From sequence record NC_055712.1: a stretch of DNA of 64,000 nt; one strand, given 5' to 3'. This DNA is from Escherichia phage phT4A. Shown here in pieces: positions 6,055 through 60,098 of the stretch; the first letter of the stretch is position 1; every line of letters starts with the position of its first letter. The position numbers and the translations under genes were made by a program. Below the pieces are notes generated by a model. That model was not told the origin of the DNA, searched no databases, and was given only the letters and a program-made list of their open reading frames with translations.

Positions 6055-6154
6055 NNNNNNNNNNNNNNNNNNNNNNNNNNNNNNNNNNNNNNNNNNNNNN
6101 NNNNNNNNNNNNNNNNNNNNNNNNNNNNNNNNNNNNNNNNNNNNNNNNNNNNNN
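6055..6154. other. assembly gap (100 N)
   Basis: Run of exactly 100 N. Confidence 0.95.
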
Positions 6155-9034: not shown

Positions 9035-9421
9035 ATGAATCTGTTTATGACTATTGGCGTTCCGGGTAGTGGAAAAACTACCTGGGCGCATGAGAAAGCC
9101 CGTGAATTGGGTAATACTGTTACGATCTCTCGCGATGATCTGCGTAGCTCTTTGTATAATGCNNNNNNNNNNNNNNNNNNNNNNNNNNNNNNNNNNNNNN
9201 NNNNNNNNNNNNNNNNNNNNNNNNNNNNNNNNNNNNNNNNNNNNNNNNNNNNNNNNNNNNNNGATACCAGGACAGATTTTGAAGTAAAAGAAGAAATTTT
9301 GTTTGACAAGATTTTAGATAAGTATTATCCTGTTATTGCAGTGGACGATAGAGACACTCCGGTCGGGATGTGGCGAGCAAACGGGATTCCGTGCTTACAA
9401 GTCGATTATGGTGATTTCTGA
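9035..9421 (+). CDS. pseT: polynucleotide 5'-kinase/3'-phosphatase, interior replaced by assembly gap
   Basis: N-terminal P-loop MTIGVPGSGKTTWA and C-terminal DTR.D..VKEEI...DDR...VGMWR..G..C.QV..GDF both match recalled T4 Pnk; 100-N gap at 9163-9262 replaces most of the gene. Confidence 0.8.
   Translation: MNLFMTIGVPGSGKTTWAHEKARELGNTVTISRDDLRSSLYNXXXXXXXXXXXXXXXXXXXXXXXXXXXXXXXXXXDTRTDFEVKEEILFDKILDKYYPVIAVDDRDTPVGMWRANGIPCLQVDYGDF
9163..9262. other. assembly gap (100 N) inside pnk
   Basis: Run of exactly 100 N. Confidence 0.95.
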
Positions 9422-13045: not shown

Positions 13046-13408
13046 ATGAAAGCATTTCAAATTTTAGAAGGTTTGCATACTGGTACGATCTATCTGGAAG
13101 AAGGTAACGACGTTCGGATCGTAGTATCAAAAACATTAACTATGGATTCTGTGATCGGTAAAGCTCGCGTTACTCCGTTTGAAAAGCGAGAGATTGAGAT
13201 CGAATATCAACCAACTGTTAAGGTGGAAGGTGGACAGCATTTAAACGTAAACGTGTTGCGCCGCGAAACTCTCCTGGATGCGGTTGAACATCCTGAAAAA
13301 TATCCACAATTGACGATCCGTGTATCTGGTTATGCAGTGCGTTTTAACTCACTGACCCCTGAACAGCAACGCGACGTTATCGCCCGAACCTTTACAGAGA
13401 GTCTATAA
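13046..13408 (+). CDS. grcA: autonomous glycyl radical cofactor (GrcA/YfiD-like)
   Basis: C-terminal [59 protein letters not shown] is almost identical to recalled E. coli GrcA, including the RVSGY glycyl-radical motif; N-terminal half divergent. Confidence 0.8.
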
Positions 13409-13677
13409 TGGCAATTGATGATATCAAGGGTTATAAACCCCATACTGATAAAAAAGTAGAAACGGTAAACCGTATCAAAGATGCTGAAAATGCATTAGGT
13501 GCAATCCTGGAAGATATCGAACAGCGACTATCAAATTCAGATATTGATTCACTGATAGAGGAAGAATTAGATGAGGTGCTTGAACGTATCCATCAAATTC
13601 AACTAGCGAAAGACCGACTGAAAGAAGCCTCTATGTGGGCGTGTCGTGCGGTGTTTCAGCCTGACGAAAAATATTAA
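13408..13677 (+). CDS. hypothetical protein
   Basis: ORF with ATGG overlap with grcA-like stop. Confidence 0.4.
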   Translation: MAIDDIKGYKPHTDKKVETVNRIKDAENALGAILEDIEQRLSNSDIDSLIEEELDEVLERIHQIQLAKDRLKEASMWACRAVFQPDEKY

Positions 13678-13682
13678 AAATC

Positions 13683-13718
13683 AAGCCGTTGCCGAAAGGT
13701 AGCGGCTTTTTCTTTTTT
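13683..13718 (+). terminator. rho-independent terminator
   Basis: AAGCCG-ttgccgaaaggtag-CGGCTT hairpin followed by TTTTCTTTTTT. Confidence 0.6.
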
Positions 13719-13732
13719 GGTGTAAAAAGTTG

Positions 13733-13761
13733 TTGACTCCCTTCTCACATTCCCTTATAGT
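13733..13761 (+). promoter_or_regulatory. sigma70-type early promoter
   Basis: TTGACT, 17-nt spacer, TATAGT; ~40 nt upstream of the next ATG. Confidence 0.5.
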
Positions 13762-13802: not shown

Positions 13803-14096
13803 ATGAAACGCTCTTACAACATGAATGAACTGGTTTTCTTCAAAACTCGTCGTGAAGCACGTGCTTACGTTCTGGCGGCTGGTAAAAATACTTCTGCTGC
13901 TATCGATATGGGTACTGATAAAGCTGTTGGTGCTCGTTGGGCCGCTGTTATCGTTATCGCTGCTCCGGTTACTCCGGTTAAAACTCTGGTACTTGGTGCG
14001 CGTCACGCCGAAACTCTTAACACTGCTGCAAGCGGTAGGGGCCACGAAGTTAAAGTGTTCAAGAAGCGTTCTTATCTTTCATGTGCAAGGGGTTAA
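13803..14096 (+). CDS. hypothetical protein
   Basis: ORF downstream of promoter, GAGGATG SD. Confidence 0.4.
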   Translation: MKRSYNMNELVFFKTRREARAYVLAAGKNTSAAIDMGTDKAVGARWAAVIVIAAPVTPVKTLVLGARHAETLNTAASGRGHEVKVFKKRSYLSCARG

Positions 14097-14098
14097 CT

Positions 14099-14338
14099 AT
14101 GGCACGATTCATATATAAAGTGGAATACGAAAATACTGAGTTATCTGATACCTTTTTGAAGATGATTCGTGACCACGGGCAACGTCTGGAAAGAGTAACG
14201 ATTGATACTGCGTTTGATTGTCCTGTTGGGTTGGTTCTAACATTATCTTGCAGCCCTGCAAAAGAATCAGCCCGTGTTGAAATGTTACATAAACTAAATG
14301 CATTTTATGAAGGTGGTAGTGTATGGCGAGTATTGTAA
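14099..14338 (+). CDS. hypothetical protein
   Basis: ORF; start set at MARFIYK. Confidence 0.35.
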   Translation: MARFIYKVEYENTELSDTFLKMIRDHGQRLERVTIDTAFDCPVGLVLTLSCSPAKESARVEMLHKLNAFYEGGSVWRVL

Positions 14339-14737
14339 AATTTTTCACCGACTCAGTGAAAGAAATTAACAGCGCTCTGGAACAATGGAACACTCGCTGT
14401 GATGTATCCATTAAATCAGAGTACGAAACAACTTATGATCGTTATGATCAGGCCCGTGGTTTGCACAATAACCCCCATGAGGTGGAAGTGTGAAATACTA
14501 CGGATTCAAAACGAGTCATTTTGGTAAAGCGTATCGTACAGAAAACATCGATCGCAAACGTCCGTACTATGATTCTTTAGTACGCGCGGGACGCAAACGC
14601 GCTCGCCAGGAAGGGAAGAAGGAAGCAGAAAATGAACTTTGATCAACCCATTGCAATGATAATCGGTGCTGTCCTGGGAATGCTTCTTTTGTTTGGCGGA
14701 ATCCCATTAACTGCATATATCATGAGGTTATTCTAAA

Positions 14738-15178
14738 ATGGACATCGGATCAGGTAGTCAGTATCCCTCATGCGCTTTAAGCAACTTTGCCCCGCATCCG
14801 TTTACGTTCGACGGGGTAGAATGCGCATCGATGGAGGGGCTTTTACAAAGCCTGAAATTCAGCAATCCAGACATGCAAGCGCATGTATGTACGCTGGTTG
14901 GTAAAGCCGCCAAGTTCAAAGGCAAGAAAAAGAAATGGTATCGCGATCAGACCTTGTACTGGAAAGGTACACCGATCCATCGCGAATCCGAAGCGTACCA
15001 GATTCTTATTGAAAATGCGTACAATGCTCTTTTCCTGAATGACGGGTTCCGCCGTGCGCTGGCAGCAACCGGAAAAAGTACCTTGACACATTCAATGGGG
15101 AAATCTCGTATGAACGAAACTATTCTGACAGAACGAGAATTTATTAGAAATTTGAACAGGTTGAGAAATTTGTTATGA
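14738..15178 (+). CDS. NADAR (YbiA/DUF1768)-like protein
   Basis: LSNFAPHPFTFDGVECASMEGLLQSLKF resembles the NADAR N-terminal signature of E. coli YbiA (FSNF..P..DG......EH.FQA.KF). Confidence 0.6.
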   Translation: MDIGSGSQYPSCALSNFAPHPFTFDGVECASMEGLLQSLKFSNPDMQAHVCTLVGKAAKFKGKKKKWYRDQTLYWKGTPIHRESEAYQILIENAYNALFLNDGFRRALAATGKSTLTHSMGKSRMNETILTEREFIRNLNRLRNLL

Positions 15179-15693
15179 AAAGCGCTGATAACCTAAAAAA
15201 AGAAATTGAAGGAATCAAGAAATTATTGCATTATATCGATGTTGATATAGAGACTGGAATATGTACTTGGAAAAGACCCAGAAAATCTATAAATGTTGGT
15301 GATGTTGCTGGATGTAAGAAAGAAAAATATCATGTTATTTGTTTCGATTATAGGTTGTATAGACGACACAGGATTGTGTTCTATTTTGCTAAAGGTTACT
15401 TACCTCAAGTAGTAGACCACATTCATGGTGTTGAACATGGCGACGGTATTGATAATTTACAAGAGGCATCGCAAAGACAAAACGTTATTAAAAAGAAAGG
15501 ACAGAAAAACAACAAAAGTGGTTATCGAGGGGTGTGTTGGTCGTCTCGTGCTGAAAAGTATCGAGCAACTATAGGTATTGATGGAAAACAAATACATTTA
15601 GGATATTTCGATACTCCAGAAGAAGCAAGTAAAGCATATCATCAAAAAGCGAAAGAAACTTTTGGTGATTTTTATAATCCATTGGTTAAATGA
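15175..15693 (+). CDS. HNH-AP2 homing endonuclease (paralog 2 of 4)
   Basis: ATGA overlap with NADAR stop; VVDHIHG...DNLQ HNH core; AP2-like YRGVCWSSRAEKYRATIGIDGKQIHLGYFDTPEEASKAY. Confidence 0.8.
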   Translation: MKSADNLKKEIEGIKKLLHYIDVDIETGICTWKRPRKSINVGDVAGCKKEKYHVICFDYRLYRRHRIVFYFAKGYLPQVVDHIHGVEHGDGIDNLQEASQRQNVIKKKGQKNNKSGYRGVCWSSRAEKYRATIGIDGKQIHLGYFDTPEEASKAYHQKAKETFGDFYNPLVK

Positions 15694-15965
15694 GATCTGT
15701 TATGAGTGAAAAAGAAAGAGTAGAATGCGTGTTCCTGTTCAAAGGCGCGATTAATCCATTAGCGTTACTGTATGCGCAACATGCATTACGTTCAACGTTG
15801 ATTCAGAGTGTTATCTATAAAGCAGGTGTGTATTATGTTACCATCGGCGCAAATAACATGGTTGTTATTGAATCCTATGTTAAGGAATGTGCATCAAACG
15901 GCGTTGTCTTTGATAAAGTCGATTTTGATGCAGGGGTAGATGCTGTTTATATGTATAAGGGTTGA
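15690..15965 (+). CDS. hypothetical protein
   Basis: ORF only. Confidence 0.35.
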   Translation: MRSVMSEKERVECVFLFKGAINPLALLYAQHALRSTLIQSVIYKAGVYYVTIGANNMVVIESYVKECASNGVVFDKVDFDAGVDAVYMYKG

Positions 15966-15966
15966 T

Positions 15967-16188
15967 ATGAGTTACGTAGTTTATTTCGATTGTTCGGATC
16001 TCGATCCGTTCGTGCTTCAACAGGCAAAGAAATATCATCAAGATGTCGTTGGCATTGGTGTAACAAATGATGATATGTTGTGCATCGAATTTGAATATTA
16101 TCGGACATTTGAGCGTGAACAATTCCTGGGTGAATTGAATGCATTCAAAAGTACCCTTTTCTTTGATCGTTATGAGGTTATATCTTGA
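15967..16188 (+). CDS. hypothetical protein
   Basis: ORF; start set at MSYVVYF. Confidence 0.3.
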   Translation: MSYVVYFDCSDLDPFVLQQAKKYHQDVVGIGVTNDDMLCIEFEYYRTFEREQFLGELNAFKSTLFFDRYEVIS

Positions 16189-34037: not shown

Positions 34038-34571
34038 CTATGCAAGATTTAATTTAGCAAATTCTCCAAAATGTTTTATCGCTTCCTGGTCGTATGCTTT
34101 TGCAGCCTCTAACTCATCACTATAAGAACCGATATGCTTAACCTTACCATCAACCATTATCTGTGCAATGTAACGTATTCCGGTTGGTTGATTGCGTACA
34201 CATACACCCTTGAATATGCTGGTTCCTTCCTTTCGCCGTTTCCTGTTCTGAGAGTTGCGGGATTGGTTCGCTTCGCGCAAGTTATCAATCCCGTCACCAG
34301 CCTCAACACCATTTTTGTGATCAATCACATCAGGTAGTTTTCCGGTCGCAACGTAGTAGATGATTCGATGGCGTAGATACCCTTTGCTTTTGAAATAAAC
34401 GCGTGTATATCCTCCTTTGATCTTCGAACCAACTTCCTTTCCGATCAAGTCGGAACGTTTATGCGATGTTCGTATAATCTTTCCTGTGTGGACATCAACA
34501 GAAACAGTTTTGAGGAATTCATCAATTCCTCTCTGTTCTTCTTCAACTGTTCTTAATCCATTATGTGACAT
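34038..34571 (-). CDS. HNH-AP2 homing endonuclease (paralog 3 of 4)
   Basis: VIDHKNG...DNLREANQ HNH core; AP2-like FKGVCVRNQPTGIRYIAQIMVDGKVKHIGSYSDELEAAKAYD; start overlaps the 3' end of the methyltransferase gene by 19 nt. Confidence 0.8.
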   Translation of the reverse strand: MSHNGLRTVEEEQRGIDEFLKTVSVDVHTGKIIRTSHKRSDLIGKEVGSKIKGGYTRVYFKSKGYLRHRIIYYVATGKLPDVIDHKNGVEAGDGIDNLREANQSRNSQNRKRRKEGTSIFKGVCVRNQPTGIRYIAQIMVDGKVKHIGSYSDELEAAKAYDQEAIKHFGEFAKLNLA

Positions 34572-36940: not shown

Positions 36941-37040
36941 NNNNNNNNNNNNNNNNNNNNNNNNNNNNNNNNNNNNNNNNNNNNNNNNNNNNNNNNNNNN
37001 NNNNNNNNNNNNNNNNNNNNNNNNNNNNNNNNNNNNNNNN
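36941..37040. other. assembly gap (100 N)
   Basis: Run of exactly 100 N. Confidence 0.95.
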
Positions 37041-38043: not shown

Positions 38044-38622
38044 TCAAGCAACCCCCGTAAAGGCGTTTACTATCTGGAAATGATCATCGAAGAATTCCCC
38101 TTGTCGTTGCACGACCTCATGCATAGGTAGCCAGAACGCGTCTGCTGCATCATCAGCACCGCCCATGATACGAGGCAATGAACCATCGTTATTAGGTTCG
38201 AGCTTGATATACTGTGCTACAGTCGGTTTTGAGAAGTACACCGAACGTTTCGGATGATCGAACAGCATCGAATTACGGATAGAACCACGAATAACCTTTT
38301 CAGGTACTTTAATTCGTACTTCTTCCAGTAATTCACGGATCGCACAATCAAGGAACGTTTCGTTACCGTTTTTGTGTCCACCCGGAAGCGCTAACGCATC
38401 TTTACCAGGCGCAAACTTACGACGGATTACTAACACGTGGTTATTACATACGACCACTGAATCAGCCGTGCAACAGTTCAGAGAATCCGGATACGGATAT
38501 TTTTTGAACTTGTCAATCTCTCGTTGCCAGTGCGCATCTTCATGGGACAAACGCTGGAATTCTTTTGTTTGTGTCCATTCATCGATAAAGGAAACCGTAG
38601 TGCTAGGCGCATATTTTAACAA
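38044..38622 (-). CDS. Nudix hydrolase
   Basis: Nudix box GGHKNGNETFLDCAIRELLEEV; overlaps the upstream NMNAT gene by 7 nt. Confidence 0.75.
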   Translation of the reverse strand: MLKYAPSTTVSFIDEWTQTKEFQRLSHEDAHWQREIDKFKKYPYPDSLNCCTADSVVVCNNHVLVIRRKFAPGKDALALPGGHKNGNETFLDCAIRELLEEVRIKVPEKVIRGSIRNSMLFDHPKRSVYFSKPTVAQYIKLEPNNDGSLPRIMGGADDAADAFWLPMHEVVQRQGEFFDDHFQIVNAFTGVA

Positions 38623-39116
38623 ATCTTCGTCCCAGCTTCATGGTGTTCCCAGATAATTTTGCGTAAATTGGTCGAGGACAGATCCTGGTCTCCAACCTTC
38701 ACAGATTCAACCGGAATATGATTCCATCCGAATGCTTTAAGCCAGTAAGAATCTTTGTCTTTTTCGTACCCGACGATCGCAATTCGGTCATTTCGAGTTT
38801 CATCGATTGCCATACGAACACGGGATTTCCATTTTTCCTCGTTATAGAGATAATCCGGAATGTGAGCGAATTTGATTCTGGCTGCATCTTCAACATCAAG
38901 TTTGCAGATAGACCAGCGAGTGATCATTGCTTGACGCTGTTTAGCGGTCAATGGGTTTAATGTGTTCGGATATGCATAAGCAGAACCGATCAGAATGTAA
39001 ACCGTATCAGCAACAGCAAGGGCTTCCCTTACCATTTTCTCATGACCATAGTGAAAAGGTTGAAAACGTCCAATTACTACAGCTTTATCATATTTGTGTT
39101 TCATAACGTGCTCCAC
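38616..39116 (-). CDS. nicotinamide-nucleotide adenylyltransferase (NadM-type)
   Basis: GRFQPFHYGH nucleotidyltransferase signature near N-terminus; about 166 aa. Confidence 0.75.
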   Translation of the reverse strand: MEHVMKHKYDKAVVIGRFQPFHYGHEKMVREALAVADTVYILIGSAYAYPNTLNPLTAKQRQAMITRWSICKLDVEDAARIKFAHIPDYLYNEEKWKSRVRMAIDETRNDRIAIVGYEKDKDSYWLKAFGWNHIPVESVKVGDQDLSSTNLRKIIWEHHEAGTKIC

Positions 39117-42745: not shown

Positions 42746-43219
42746 TTAATTCGCCTTACGAGGATCGAAATGAACGACAATGATCGGGTAATCACCAGTC
42801 ACCTCATTAATAATGCGCTTAATGAGTTCCCAGTCGCCCCCAGCGAGGCCAGCACCGATTAAAGGTGTGATGATAGGCTTTCCAGTCTTAACGGCGTCAG
42901 CAAGCCCTACAGCCTGTTTAAAAGCATTGCCGATTGCGTCATAATCGACACGCGGCCCAGGTGTCCAGAAATCATATTGAGTATATGCATTGAAAACAAT
43001 GTTGCCTTTTTCGCCAATGTAAACAGAACAAGTTCCGAGCTTATCACGGGAACCTTTTAACGTATTGGCATCAACTTGAAATGCACCAGGAATACGATCG
43101 CGGATTTCGCGAGCAATACCAGCGCCCATATTGCAATAGCAGTTGCATCCGTGGATCAAATGGCCTTCACCGTTCAGATACATATTGACAGCATTACCTT
43201 TCACTTCTTTAATGATCAT
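42746..43219 (-). CDS. macro-domain protein (ADP-ribose binding/processing)
   Basis: HGCNCYCNMGAGIAREI and PLIGAGLAGG resemble the macro-domain Gly-rich loops (NAAN...GGGV..AI, P.ISTG..G); start set at MIIKEVKG. Confidence 0.6.
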   Translation of the reverse strand: MIIKEVKGNAVNMYLNGEGHLIHGCNCYCNMGAGIAREIRDRIPGAFQVDANTLKGSRDKLGTCSVYIGEKGNIVFNAYTQYDFWTPGPRVDYDAIGNAFKQAVGLADAVKTGKPIITPLIGAGLAGGDWELIKRIINEVTGDYPIIVVHFDPRKAN

Positions 43220-43303
43220 TTTTATTTTTCCGATATAGTAGGGCCACAACAAGGCCCATCAAAATCACAAGGATCCACAATACAGTGAATTGAACCCCTA
43301 CGC

Positions 43304-57247: not shown

Positions 57248-58162
57248 TTATTTTGGTAATTTTTCGATTGTTGCTTTCAACTCATTGATTTTATTAAAGA
57301 GTTCATCGCTATATTTCATCAACTCACTACGGCGTTTTTCGGCCCACTTGATCAGGAATTCAGGAGAATCTACACCATACGTGTAACCTTCTGCACTCAG
57401 TTGAATACGAGCACGGGAACCATAATCAACAGAACTTTGTTCAATGAGAAACTTAACCGCATCAAGCAGGGCTAAATCTTCATGACTTACCATGATTCCT
57501 TCTGCCTTTGGAAGATCCACAACTTCATCCTGAATGAGTTCACGGCGGGTTGTTTCTTCCAGTGTTTCATGATTCTGGATCATCGTTTCGACCGGATCCT
57601 TTGCCACGGCTGGTTTGTTTTCACCTACTTCTTCCAAAAACATCAAAATCCATCCAGGAATTTTAGTCCGGAAAGAACTTTGTACTTCACTGGTGCATGA
57701 ATTTCCCAGAATGTGGATCGCGTTACCATGCATATCAGCTTTATTGATATAGATAACGTTCTGCTGTTCCTGTCGGTTGCTACCATAAGAAAGGAAGCGG
57801 CGTAACGATGTGTTATGACCATACTTCCCTAAATCGATTTCAGCCAGGCAATCAATGATCCCACGGTTAGAAACCTTGTAACGCTTACCCTGTTTGAAAA
57901 ATAACGATTCTTCCAGGTGAGTAGGGGTAAACTCTTCATAAAGAACATAGAATTCTTTAGGAATTTTGCGCTGAACCAGACTCAGTTTACAATTATTAGA
58001 AGGAACAATAACAGAGTGAATGTTTCCTTCGGTATCACACATAGCTTGCATTACTTGCGGATAGTAAAGATGGTCTTTCTTGCAAGTATAGCTATGGATA
58101 CGACTCTGACGTTTTTTGAAGTACCATTTACCAGTTTCAAAAGGCGCTGTTGTAAAATTCAT
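57248..58162 (-). CDS. hypothetical protein
   Basis: 304-aa ORF. Confidence 0.4.
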   Translation of the reverse strand: MNFTTAPFETGKWYFKKRQSRIHSYTCKKDHLYYPQVMQAMCDTEGNIHSVIVPSNNCKLSLVQRKIPKEFYVLYEEFTPTHLEESLFFKQGKRYKVSNRGIIDCLAEIDLGKYGHNTSLRRFLSYGSNRQEQQNVIYINKADMHGNAIHILGNSCTSEVQSSFRTKIPGWILMFLEEVGENKPAVAKDPVETMIQNHETLEETTRRELIQDEVVDLPKAEGIMVSHEDLALLDAVKFLIEQSSVDYGSRARIQLSAEGYTYGVDSPEFLIKWAEKRRSELMKYSDELFNKINELKATIEKLPK

Positions 58163-58686
58163 TTTGCATTCTCATACATAGTTAAAATTGCTTGCATATG
58201 TTCCGGTGATTGTGGAACCCCTGCAAAGTTCACTTTCAAAAAGAAATTCAACCGATCTTTTATGTTGCACTCATCGAGTCCAAGCGCTGGCAATGAAATG
58301 TTTTCAAAAGCACGTTGTTCATGTCTTTCCATTTCACCCCAAAACAAACGGGAACCGTTAGGCATCGGTATTCCAATTTCATTGTTCCAGAATTTCATGA
58401 TAGTTGTCAAGCGTTGTTTTCCATCAATGACTTCTACCCATCGAGATTCGTTGAATTCACTATCAACCGCGATCGCAATGATACCGCAAGGAAACCCAGT
58501 AATCAAAGTCTTCATGAAAGCATCTTGCTCTTTCTGCTTCCACACGTAGGGCCGCTGATAGGACGGATTCAGATCCAGATCGTTGTTCTTGAACCAATGA
58601 ATGTAACTACCAACCATGATCGCATGATCGCGACTTTGGAAAGTTTTTAACTCACGAATACGGTTTCTTACAATTTCGTCTGTCAT
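58159..58686 (-). CDS. DUF262 (ParB/Srx-like, GmrSD N-terminal-type) domain protein
   Basis: YQRPYVW and IDGKQR match the DUF262 core; no C-terminal DUF1524/HNH part; start set at MTDEIV. Confidence 0.55.
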   Translation of the reverse strand: MTDEIVRNRIRELKTFQSRDHAIMVGSYIHWFKNNDLDLNPSYQRPYVWKQKEQDAFMKTLITGFPCGIIAIAVDSEFNESRWVEVIDGKQRLTTIMKFWNNEIGIPMPNGSRLFWGEMERHEQRAFENISLPALGLDECNIKDRLNFFLKVNFAGVPQSPEHMQAILTMYENAK

Positions 58687-59009
58687 TATAAAATCACCAT
58701 CCAGTATATAATCGTAATCATAACCGCTACAGTGAAACACATTGCAGCATACACACGCGCATTATGAACCTGTGTTTTCAATTCTGCGATCTCTTGATCC
58801 TTTTCGCTTTCAAACTCTTCGCGAGTACCATAATACCCAGGATCGTTAGCAGTTGCCAATCTAACCGCATCTTTTTCAACCAGCGTTGCGTAACCGCTTT
58901 TTATTTGTGTCGCCCCGTACCATCCACCCCGATCGTTGTTAATGATCAGATGATCGCCTTTTTCGTTATGCTTTGATTCGCCAACAACAATAACCCGCTT
59001 ACCATTCAT
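58686..59009 (-). CDS. hypothetical protein with C-terminal TM segment
   Basis: C-terminal hydrophobic AAMCFTVAVMITIIYWMVIL. Confidence 0.35.
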   Translation of the reverse strand: MNGKRVIVVGESKHNEKGDHLIINNDRGGWYGATQIKSGYATLVEKDAVRLATANDPGYYGTREEFESEKDQEIAELKTQVHNARVYAAMCFTVAVMITIIYWMVIL

Positions 59010-59690: not shown

Positions 59691-60098
59691 TCATCTTGCT
59701 AAAATTTTAGGCAGTAGTTGCCCCATCGTTTTACGTGCATGTGACGGAATCTGTGATACTGGGACATATTTGAAATCATCCATTTCACGTATAGTCCGTC
59801 CGTTCTTAACGAAAGTGGATGCACAATAGCATTCTTCCGCTACTGGGTAATCTTGCCCTACATAGAGAAATAAAGCAAGGTTTTTTGTTTTCGTGTAATC
59901 GAGAACACCCAGGCTAACCAATTCCTCCGCGAACACTTCAAATCCTGTTTCTTCAAAGCATTCACGGATCGCCGCGTCAATATGAGTTTCGCCCTTTTCA
60001 ACATGCCCCTTCGGAATATCCCAATGGGGCGTTTCAGTGGCATGGCCCATCAACACGGCACCATCTTTAATAAAGATAATACCCGCTGATAGTTCCAT
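59691..60098 (-). CDS. Nudix hydrolase (second copy)
   Basis: Nudix box GHVEKGETHIDAAIRECFEETG. Confidence 0.7.
   Translation of the reverse strand: MELSAGIIFIKDGAVLMGHATETPHWDIPKGHVEKGETHIDAAIRECFEETGFEVFAEELVSLGVLDYTKTKNLALFLYVGQDYPVAEECYCASTFVKNGRTIREMDDFKYVPVSQIPSHARKTMGQLLPKILAR

Follow-up and report, generated by a model that had tools for sequence, protein, structure and literature searches.

The recognition of gp30.3 proteins as phage NADARs dates from 2012. The T4 member was shown in 2024 to hydrolyse guanine-ADP-ribose (G-ADPr), and not thymidine-ADPr, in vitro (Suskiewicz group; Toxins 2024, PMC11125620; PMC12945103), and in 2025 the DarTG1 resistance of T-even phages was mapped to gene 30.3, which was renamed adfN for 'anti-DarT factor NADAR' (Johannesman et al., Nat Commun 2025, PMC11825919). 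In the latter study, adfN was necessary for T4 and sufficient to rescue RB69 against DarTG1, purified AdfN-T4 stripped ADP-ribose from DarT1-modified DNA, and E36A, K43A and an RB69-type C-terminal truncation each weakened the protein (PMC11825919). The T4 NADAR gives uninfected cells no protection from DarT1 (PMC11125620, PMC12945103) and AdfN-T4 is fully effective only during T-even infection, being poor for non-T-even phages (PMC11825919); it does not fully rescue T5 or Bas25. Some phage cofactor or context is therefore required. None of the phage NADARs tested counters DarTG2.

Several other NADAR lineages are described. AdfN-Bas32 and AdfN-Bas60, from T5-like phages and Vequintavirinae, counter DarTG1 and are G-ADPr-specific. 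They were acquired independently, fall on other NADAR branches and, unlike the gp30.3 clade, neutralise DarT1 in the absence of infection. DarG1 is the DarT1-associated NADAR (BC4488 family, including those of E. coli C7 and G. lovleyi; PDB 8BAT) and is encoded beside DarT1; the T4 homologue cannot replace it in uninfected cells. YbiA of E. coli (PDB 2B3W) lies in a LexA-controlled host operon and gives no in vivo protection against DarT1. A last-strand residue tells these groups apart: the YbiA family has Glu, NADARs linked to DarT1 have Asp, and the phage (gp30.3) subfamily has His (PMC11543638, PMC11125620).

The window analysed here is a 64,000-nucleotide stretch of Escherichia phage phT4A (NC_055712.1), in which the first-pass annotation had placed a NADAR-domain protein at 14738-15178. 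These boundaries were exact, corresponding to an ATG-to-TGA ORF on the + strand that encodes 146 aa plus stop, and the peptide originally quoted, LSNFAPHPFTFDGVECASMEGLLQSLKF, represents residues 14-41 of this ORF. The window derives from a T4-like Klebsiella myovirus of Miro/Slopekvirus type. Klebsiella phage vB_KpnM_Prick1_ER44 matches it at 99.7% identity across positions 14000-16000 and has the same CDS called, labelled 'hypothetical protein' there as in nearly all other homologue records. The orthologue in Klebsiella phage phi1_146010 (PP889464.1) is labelled 'virion RNA polymerase' and looks mis-annotated. The gene and its surroundings are arranged as follows.

13046..13408, + strand, glycyl-radical domain protein of 120 aa with the domain at its C-terminal end (PF01228, 66.5 bits)
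13408..13677, + strand, Acb2/Tad1 hairpin protein of 89 aa (PF24729, 62.8 bits, E 3e-17)
13683-13708, terminator-like hairpin 5' of the promoter-like site
13733..13761, + strand, sigma-70-like promoter match TTGACT-17-TATAGT (10/12), the best in a consensus scan and suggestive only
13803..14736, five small ORFs
14724..14727, + strand, GAGG, a putative Shine-Dalgarno sequence read from the sequence 10 nt 5' of the NADAR ATG
14738..15178, + strand, gp30.3/AdfN orthologue, phage-type NADAR domain protein, complete CDS
15175..15693, + strand, HNH_3 plus AP2 homing endonuclease in the position of T2 gene 30.2

The small ORF 5' of the NADAR gene stops at 14736, two bases ahead of the ATG, and the HNH gene begins within the NADAR stop codon (ATGA, 15175-15178). 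The NADAR gene is therefore a member of a tightly packed + strand operon. The promoter-like site at 13733..13761 is a possible start of a unit comprising the five small ORFs, the NADAR and HNH genes, and genes further downstream. However, promoter-like sites found by the consensus scan were fewer in this region than in shuffled controls (13 vs 20.5), such that the 'early region' label given by the first-pass annotation is based on synteny with early and middle genes of T4. Probably, the gene is expressed early, from this packed operon. Domain matches of the neighbouring ORFs identified small unknowns and HNH-AP2, DUF7338, glycyl-radical and Acb2-like proteins, none of which was a DarT. By sequence, the 13046..13408 protein resembles a stand-alone YfiD/GrcA-type 'spare part' for glycyl-radical enzymes. 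A second HNH_3 ORF is present elsewhere in the window (34038..34571, - strand).

We determined the family of the window protein by profile and sequence comparison. It matched Pfam PF08010, 'Bacteriophage protein GP30.3', with 185.2 bits (cutoff 36, E 6.2e-55) over profile positions 2-137 of 138. PHROG 652 was also matched (E 4e-52). Using BLASTP, residues 1-146 aligned with residues 4-152 of the 152-aa T2 gp30.3 (44% identity, E 3e-36), an end-to-end match reaching the last residue of both proteins; according to the literature, T2 gp30.3 is 98% identical to the T4 protein. Gene order was also conserved, with cd (dCMP deaminase), 31, small ORFs/30.x, 30.3 and lig (DNA ligase) common to the window and T2. 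Family membership is thus established and, from sequence and synteny, the window gene is identified as the positional orthologue of T4 gene 30.3.

This family is large. Homologues were found by tblastn in 1,508 phage records, most commonly in phages of Escherichia, Klebsiella, Shigella, Aeromonas, Acinetobacter and Vibrio; the matches listed also included Tenacibaculum and Rhizobium phages. A profile search of 1.84 billion representatives retrieved 1,460 clusters at 50% identity. Some representatives (P0125, P0149, P0151, P0174, P0206) are 290-560 aa long and show two or three matches to the profile, or a match at one end only, which indicates that tandem NADAR repeats and domain fusions exist in the gp30.3 family. 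The PHROG 652 profile, which has 296 positions and is matched by the window protein at positions 129-272, also hints at such architectures.

The relationship to other NADARs was more distant. The canonical NADAR Pfam, PF08719, was under threshold (13.8 bits vs cutoff 35.1), the gp30.3 clade being too divergent for it and having its own Pfam family. TIGR02464, the riboflavin-glycosidase (YbiA) model, was likewise under threshold (16.2 vs cutoff 73.7 bits), and the NCBIfam NADAR-type models gave sub-threshold matches only; neither these nor the PF08719 match were used as membership evidence. Searching the PDB by sequence, starting either from the window protein by itself or from a profile of 50 family sequences, returned no NADAR structure and only chance matches to Ino80 and plant defensins, and a fold comparison was therefore required. 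The predicted fold was that of a NADAR protein, and its three top PDB matches were the same as those reported by the AdfN-T4 authors. In addition, the family profile aligned with E. coli YbiA (hhalign E 6.6e-5, probability 64%), and the conserved Glu and Lys seven residues apart that typify NADARs (PnNADAR E43/K50, EcC7 E88/K95) are present as E33/K40. NADAR superfamily membership is thus supported by the predicted fold together with profile-profile alignment. Published work likewise counts the gp30.3 clade as a NADAR subfamily, on the basis of its fold and motifs (PMC11543638, PMC11125620).

The putative catalytic and structural features of the window protein were located by alignment and on the predicted model, and their conservation was scored in 150 representatives sharing pairwise <=50% identity.

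14780..14788, + strand, codons of S15-N16-F17, the N-terminal 'SNF' motif (hhalign vs YbiA, SNF at YbiA 30-32)
14834..14836, + strand, codon GAG of E33, catalytic glutamate (BLASTP to T2 gp30.3; hhalign to YbiA)
14855..14857, + strand, codon AAA of K40, phosphate-coordinating lysine (BLASTP to T2 gp30.3; hhalign to YbiA)
15089..15091, + strand, codon CAT of H118, last-strand residue (aligns with T2 gp30.3 H123 by BLASTP)
15131..15172, + strand, C-terminal alpha-helix, residues 132-145 (DSSP on the predicted model)

In these alignments, E33 corresponded to T4 AdfN E36, YbiA E48, PnNADAR E43 and E88 of the EcC7 NADAR, and K40 to T4 AdfN K43, YbiA K55, PnNADAR K50 and EcC7 K95. The functional role of the glutamate is taken from PMC11825919 and PMC11543638, and the phosphate-coordinating role of the lysine from PMC11543638. 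E33 was invariant in family alignment A1 and Glu in 143/150 representatives; Lys occupied the K40 position in 146/150, with further support from A1. The SNF motif was also well conserved (S 138/150, N 139/150, F 121/150). The first-pass annotation had described the usual Glu-His dyad as replaced by Met-Glu, but this was a one-residue register error. In the hhalign alignment the glutamate is retained (E33 = YbiA E48) and it is the following His that is exchanged, G34 lying opposite YbiA H49. Gly occupied this position in 131/150 family representatives, and a His after the catalytic Glu is not universal, since PnNADAR has Gln there.

For the third position, the hhalign block against YbiA stops at T117/V124, and H118 lies one residue beyond, opposite YbiA E125. 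From this sequence register, as distinct from superposed coordinates, we infer that H118 is equivalent to YbiA E125. Combining the YbiA-PnNADAR alignment with the numbering of PMC11543638, the catalytic positions of the window protein equate to PnNADAR E43, K50 and E125. H118 was invariant in A1 and His in 139/150 representatives, identifying it, at the level of sequence, as the histidine that marks phage NADARs. S15, N16, R82, W75, G121, T131, E134 and F135 were conserved to a similar degree to E33, K40 and H118 across the 150 representatives. This near-invariance of E, K and H across such diverse sequences speaks for an enzyme that is active and under purifying selection. The predicted C-terminal helix, the counterpart of that missing from the defective RB69 allele, is intact in the window protein, with T131, E134 and F135 near-invariant around it in both A1 and the 150 representatives; the need for this helix is taken from PMC11825919.

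Compared with the described systems, the closest counterpart is T4/T2 gp30.3 (AdfN), which shares PF08010, the E/K/H residues, an intact C-terminal helix, a similar length (window 146 vs 152 aa), the predicted fold and the location between gene 31 and DNA ligase. Nevertheless, 56% of residues differ, the host of the window phage is taken as Klebsiella and not E. coli, and the HNH-AP2 homing endonuclease stands where T2 has 30.2 directly downstream. DarT1-associated NADARs are longer (about 219 aa vs 146) and carry the last-strand Asp where the window protein has His, and, whilst DarG1 has DarT1 as its neighbour, the window protein is an orphan without an adjacent DarT gene. By analogy, the window protein would work like DarG1, yet it does not group with the DarG1/BC4488 family. 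YbiA has Glu on the last strand and His after the catalytic Glu, positions at which the window protein has His and Gly, respectively, and YbiA lacks the beta-hairpin and Lys-rich insertion found at residues 56-84 of the phage protein. Judged by the last-strand His and the sub-cutoff TIGR02464 match, the window protein is not a YbiA-family member. AdfN-Bas32 and AdfN-Bas60 share with the window protein the status of phage-borne orphan NADARs.

Based on orthology, fold and the conserved active site, the window protein is very probably a Slopekvirus-type gp30.3 (AdfN) orthologue acting as a DNA guanine-N2-ADP-ribosyl glycohydrolase, that is, an orphan antitoxin against DarT1. Under this scenario, infection would trigger DarTG1 and the host toxin DarT1 would attach ADP-ribose to guanine N2 of phage DNA. 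The window NADAR would bind this ADP-ribose, with E33 contacting the distal ribose, K40 contacting the diphosphate and H118 at the last-strand catalytic position, and would cleave the N-glycosidic bond, leaving unmodified DNA on which replication could continue. The protein, a free-standing NADAR of the His-type subfamily, would in effect be a phage-borne orphan antitoxin. Only for the T4 orthologue has it been shown that the protein hydrolyses G-ADPr in vitro, that it is necessary and sufficient against DarTG1 during T-even infection, and that it is inactive on DarT2 T-ADPr, and it is from this orthologue that we infer the same activity and the same physiological target for the 44%-identical window protein. 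The counter-defence role suggested in the first-pass annotation, aimed at DarT-type systems in general, is thus supported through T4 AdfN and narrowed to DarT1 guanine-ADPr, with DarT2 thymidine-ADPr removed from its scope.

The same annotation had described the region as unusually rich in ADPr/NAD-handling enzymes. Macro, Nudix (two) and NMNAT domains were indeed detected in the window, encoded by the following ORFs.

38044..38622, - strand, first NUDIX ORF (domain match)
38616..39116, - strand, cytidylyltransferase-like (NMNAT-like) ORF abutting the first NUDIX ORF
42746..43252, - strand, stand-alone Macro domain protein (PF01661, 29.8 bits)
59691..60098, - strand, second NUDIX hydrolase (PF00293, 54.8 bits)

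However, 23-45 kb separate these genes from the NADAR gene. A cluster or operon uniting the NADAR gene with the macro, Nudix and NMNAT genes was rejected, given this distance, the opposite strand and their location beyond the baseplate genes. In phage PP738780, the NMNAT-like and first NUDIX ORFs make up one 352-aa gene. Its product is similar to bifunctional NMN adenylyltransferase/Nudix proteins (NCBIfam E 1e-78, 265 bits, under the equivalog cutoff of 397). In the window, a one-base G deletion near 38637 causes a frameshift that splits this gene. The deletion could be a sequencing artefact within a G run, or the gene could be a genuine pseudogene. Near the second NUDIX gene, an ORF at 58159-58740 (- strand) matched the GmrSD-type restriction endonuclease N-terminal domain (PF03235, 68.7 bits), which is unusual for a phage. 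The window also contains three runs of exactly 100 N (6055-6154, 9163-9262 and 36941-37040). At these places the near-identical PP738780 has about 2.2 kb (ribonucleotide reductase subunits), 0.6 kb and 0.9 kb, respectively. The N runs are assembly gaps or masked stretches, and adjoining genes appear truncated for that reason only.

The Acb2/Tad1 family comprises phage sponges for CBASS and Thoeris signalling nucleotides. Its member in the window lies 1 kb 5' of the NADAR gene, with the hairpin, the promoter-like site and the five small ORFs between, and the Acb2-like gene, these ORFs and the NADAR gene may constitute a small counter-defence neighbourhood. Such a signal sponge, alongside the Macro, two Nudix and NMNAT domains, would also fit a NADAR whose main substrates are soluble low-molecular-weight ADPr derivatives rather than DNA, for example immune signals or toxic products of TIR, sirtuin or ART defence systems, handled together with the macro, Nudix and NMNAT proteins. 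Soluble ADPr derivatives were proposed by Iyer et al. 2022 as the substrates of most phage NADARs, as well as Macro and Nudix domains, and the same authors documented the co-occurrence of all three in large myoviruses and large DNA viruses (PMC9503650); YbiA-type NADARs, moreover, act on small-molecule N-glycosides. We consider this alternative very unlikely for the window protein. Later work demonstrated activity of the T4 orthologue on DNA G-ADPr, and T4 lacking it becomes specifically sensitive to DarTG1; no gp30.3 protein is known to have a soluble substrate, and the distant NAD/ADPr genes on the other strand are not co-transcribed with the NADAR gene.

Activity on nucleic acid may also be directed, in Klebsiella, at something other than DarT1-modified DNA, such as G-ADPr on RNA or marks left by pierisin/ScARP-like or YarT-like ARTs. 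RNA G-ADPr is likewise removed by all NADAR families tested, T4's included (PMC12945103), and further ART-NADAR toxin-antitoxin pairs, YarT-YbiA among them, continue to be discovered (PMC11125620). The family also occurs in phages of hosts as different as Aeromonas, Vibrio, Acinetobacter, Tenacibaculum and Rhizobium, which suggests that its target is widespread. Still, we regard a target of this kind as unlikely, since countering DarTG1 is the sole in vivo phenotype known for the family and, among the possible marks, C-ADPr is reversed by NADAR and YbiA-type enzymes in a summary table from which phage NADARs are absent (PMC12945103). A protein with no part in defence evasion, whether it cleaves riboflavin-pathway intermediates as a YbiA-like N-glycosidase or is an inactive structural remnant, is extremely improbable. 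The YbiA-defining last-strand Glu is His here, control of riboflavin damage is of no obvious use to a lytic phage, the near-invariance of the active-site residues across the 150 representatives speaks against a remnant, and DNA-ADPr is a substrate of the T4 enzyme.

A DNA G-ADPr glycohydrolase directed against DarT1 thus remains our preferred reading, and the other genes of the window allow a broader version of it. The sole NCBIfam match of the macro protein (42746..43252, - strand) was the DarG antitoxin, far under cutoff (22.5 bits, E 6e-5), and its PDB sequence matches included BT1257, SCO6735 (5E3B) and the DarG macrodomain (5M31, E 0.019). As a lead only, this protein could be an orphan DarG2-like enzyme that complements the NADAR. 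The two would then form an anti-DarT kit, with the NADAR reversing DarT1 guanine-ADPr and the macro protein DarT2 thymidine-ADPr; in addition, the five small ORFs between the Acb2-like gene and the NADAR gene might be a counter-defence islet, and the Slopekvirus NADAR might differ from AdfN-T4 in its host-factor dependence or in the DarT1 alleles it counters. Taken as a whole, this extended proposal is speculative and rather unlikely.

The kind of function described here is already published, and the window gene is an uncharacterised orthologue of a published counter-defence enzyme. At 44% identity, it would be a useful comparator for explaining the dependence of AdfN-T4 on T-even infection. 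Among the results of a literature search on DarTG in Klebsiella, no study focused on this combination was listed; if Klebsiella strains carry DarTG1, the window gene predicts phage resistance to it. Finally, transferring the AdfN/NADAR annotation to this family would improve the prediction of defence and counter-defence for therapeutic Klebsiella phages of the Slopekvirus group.
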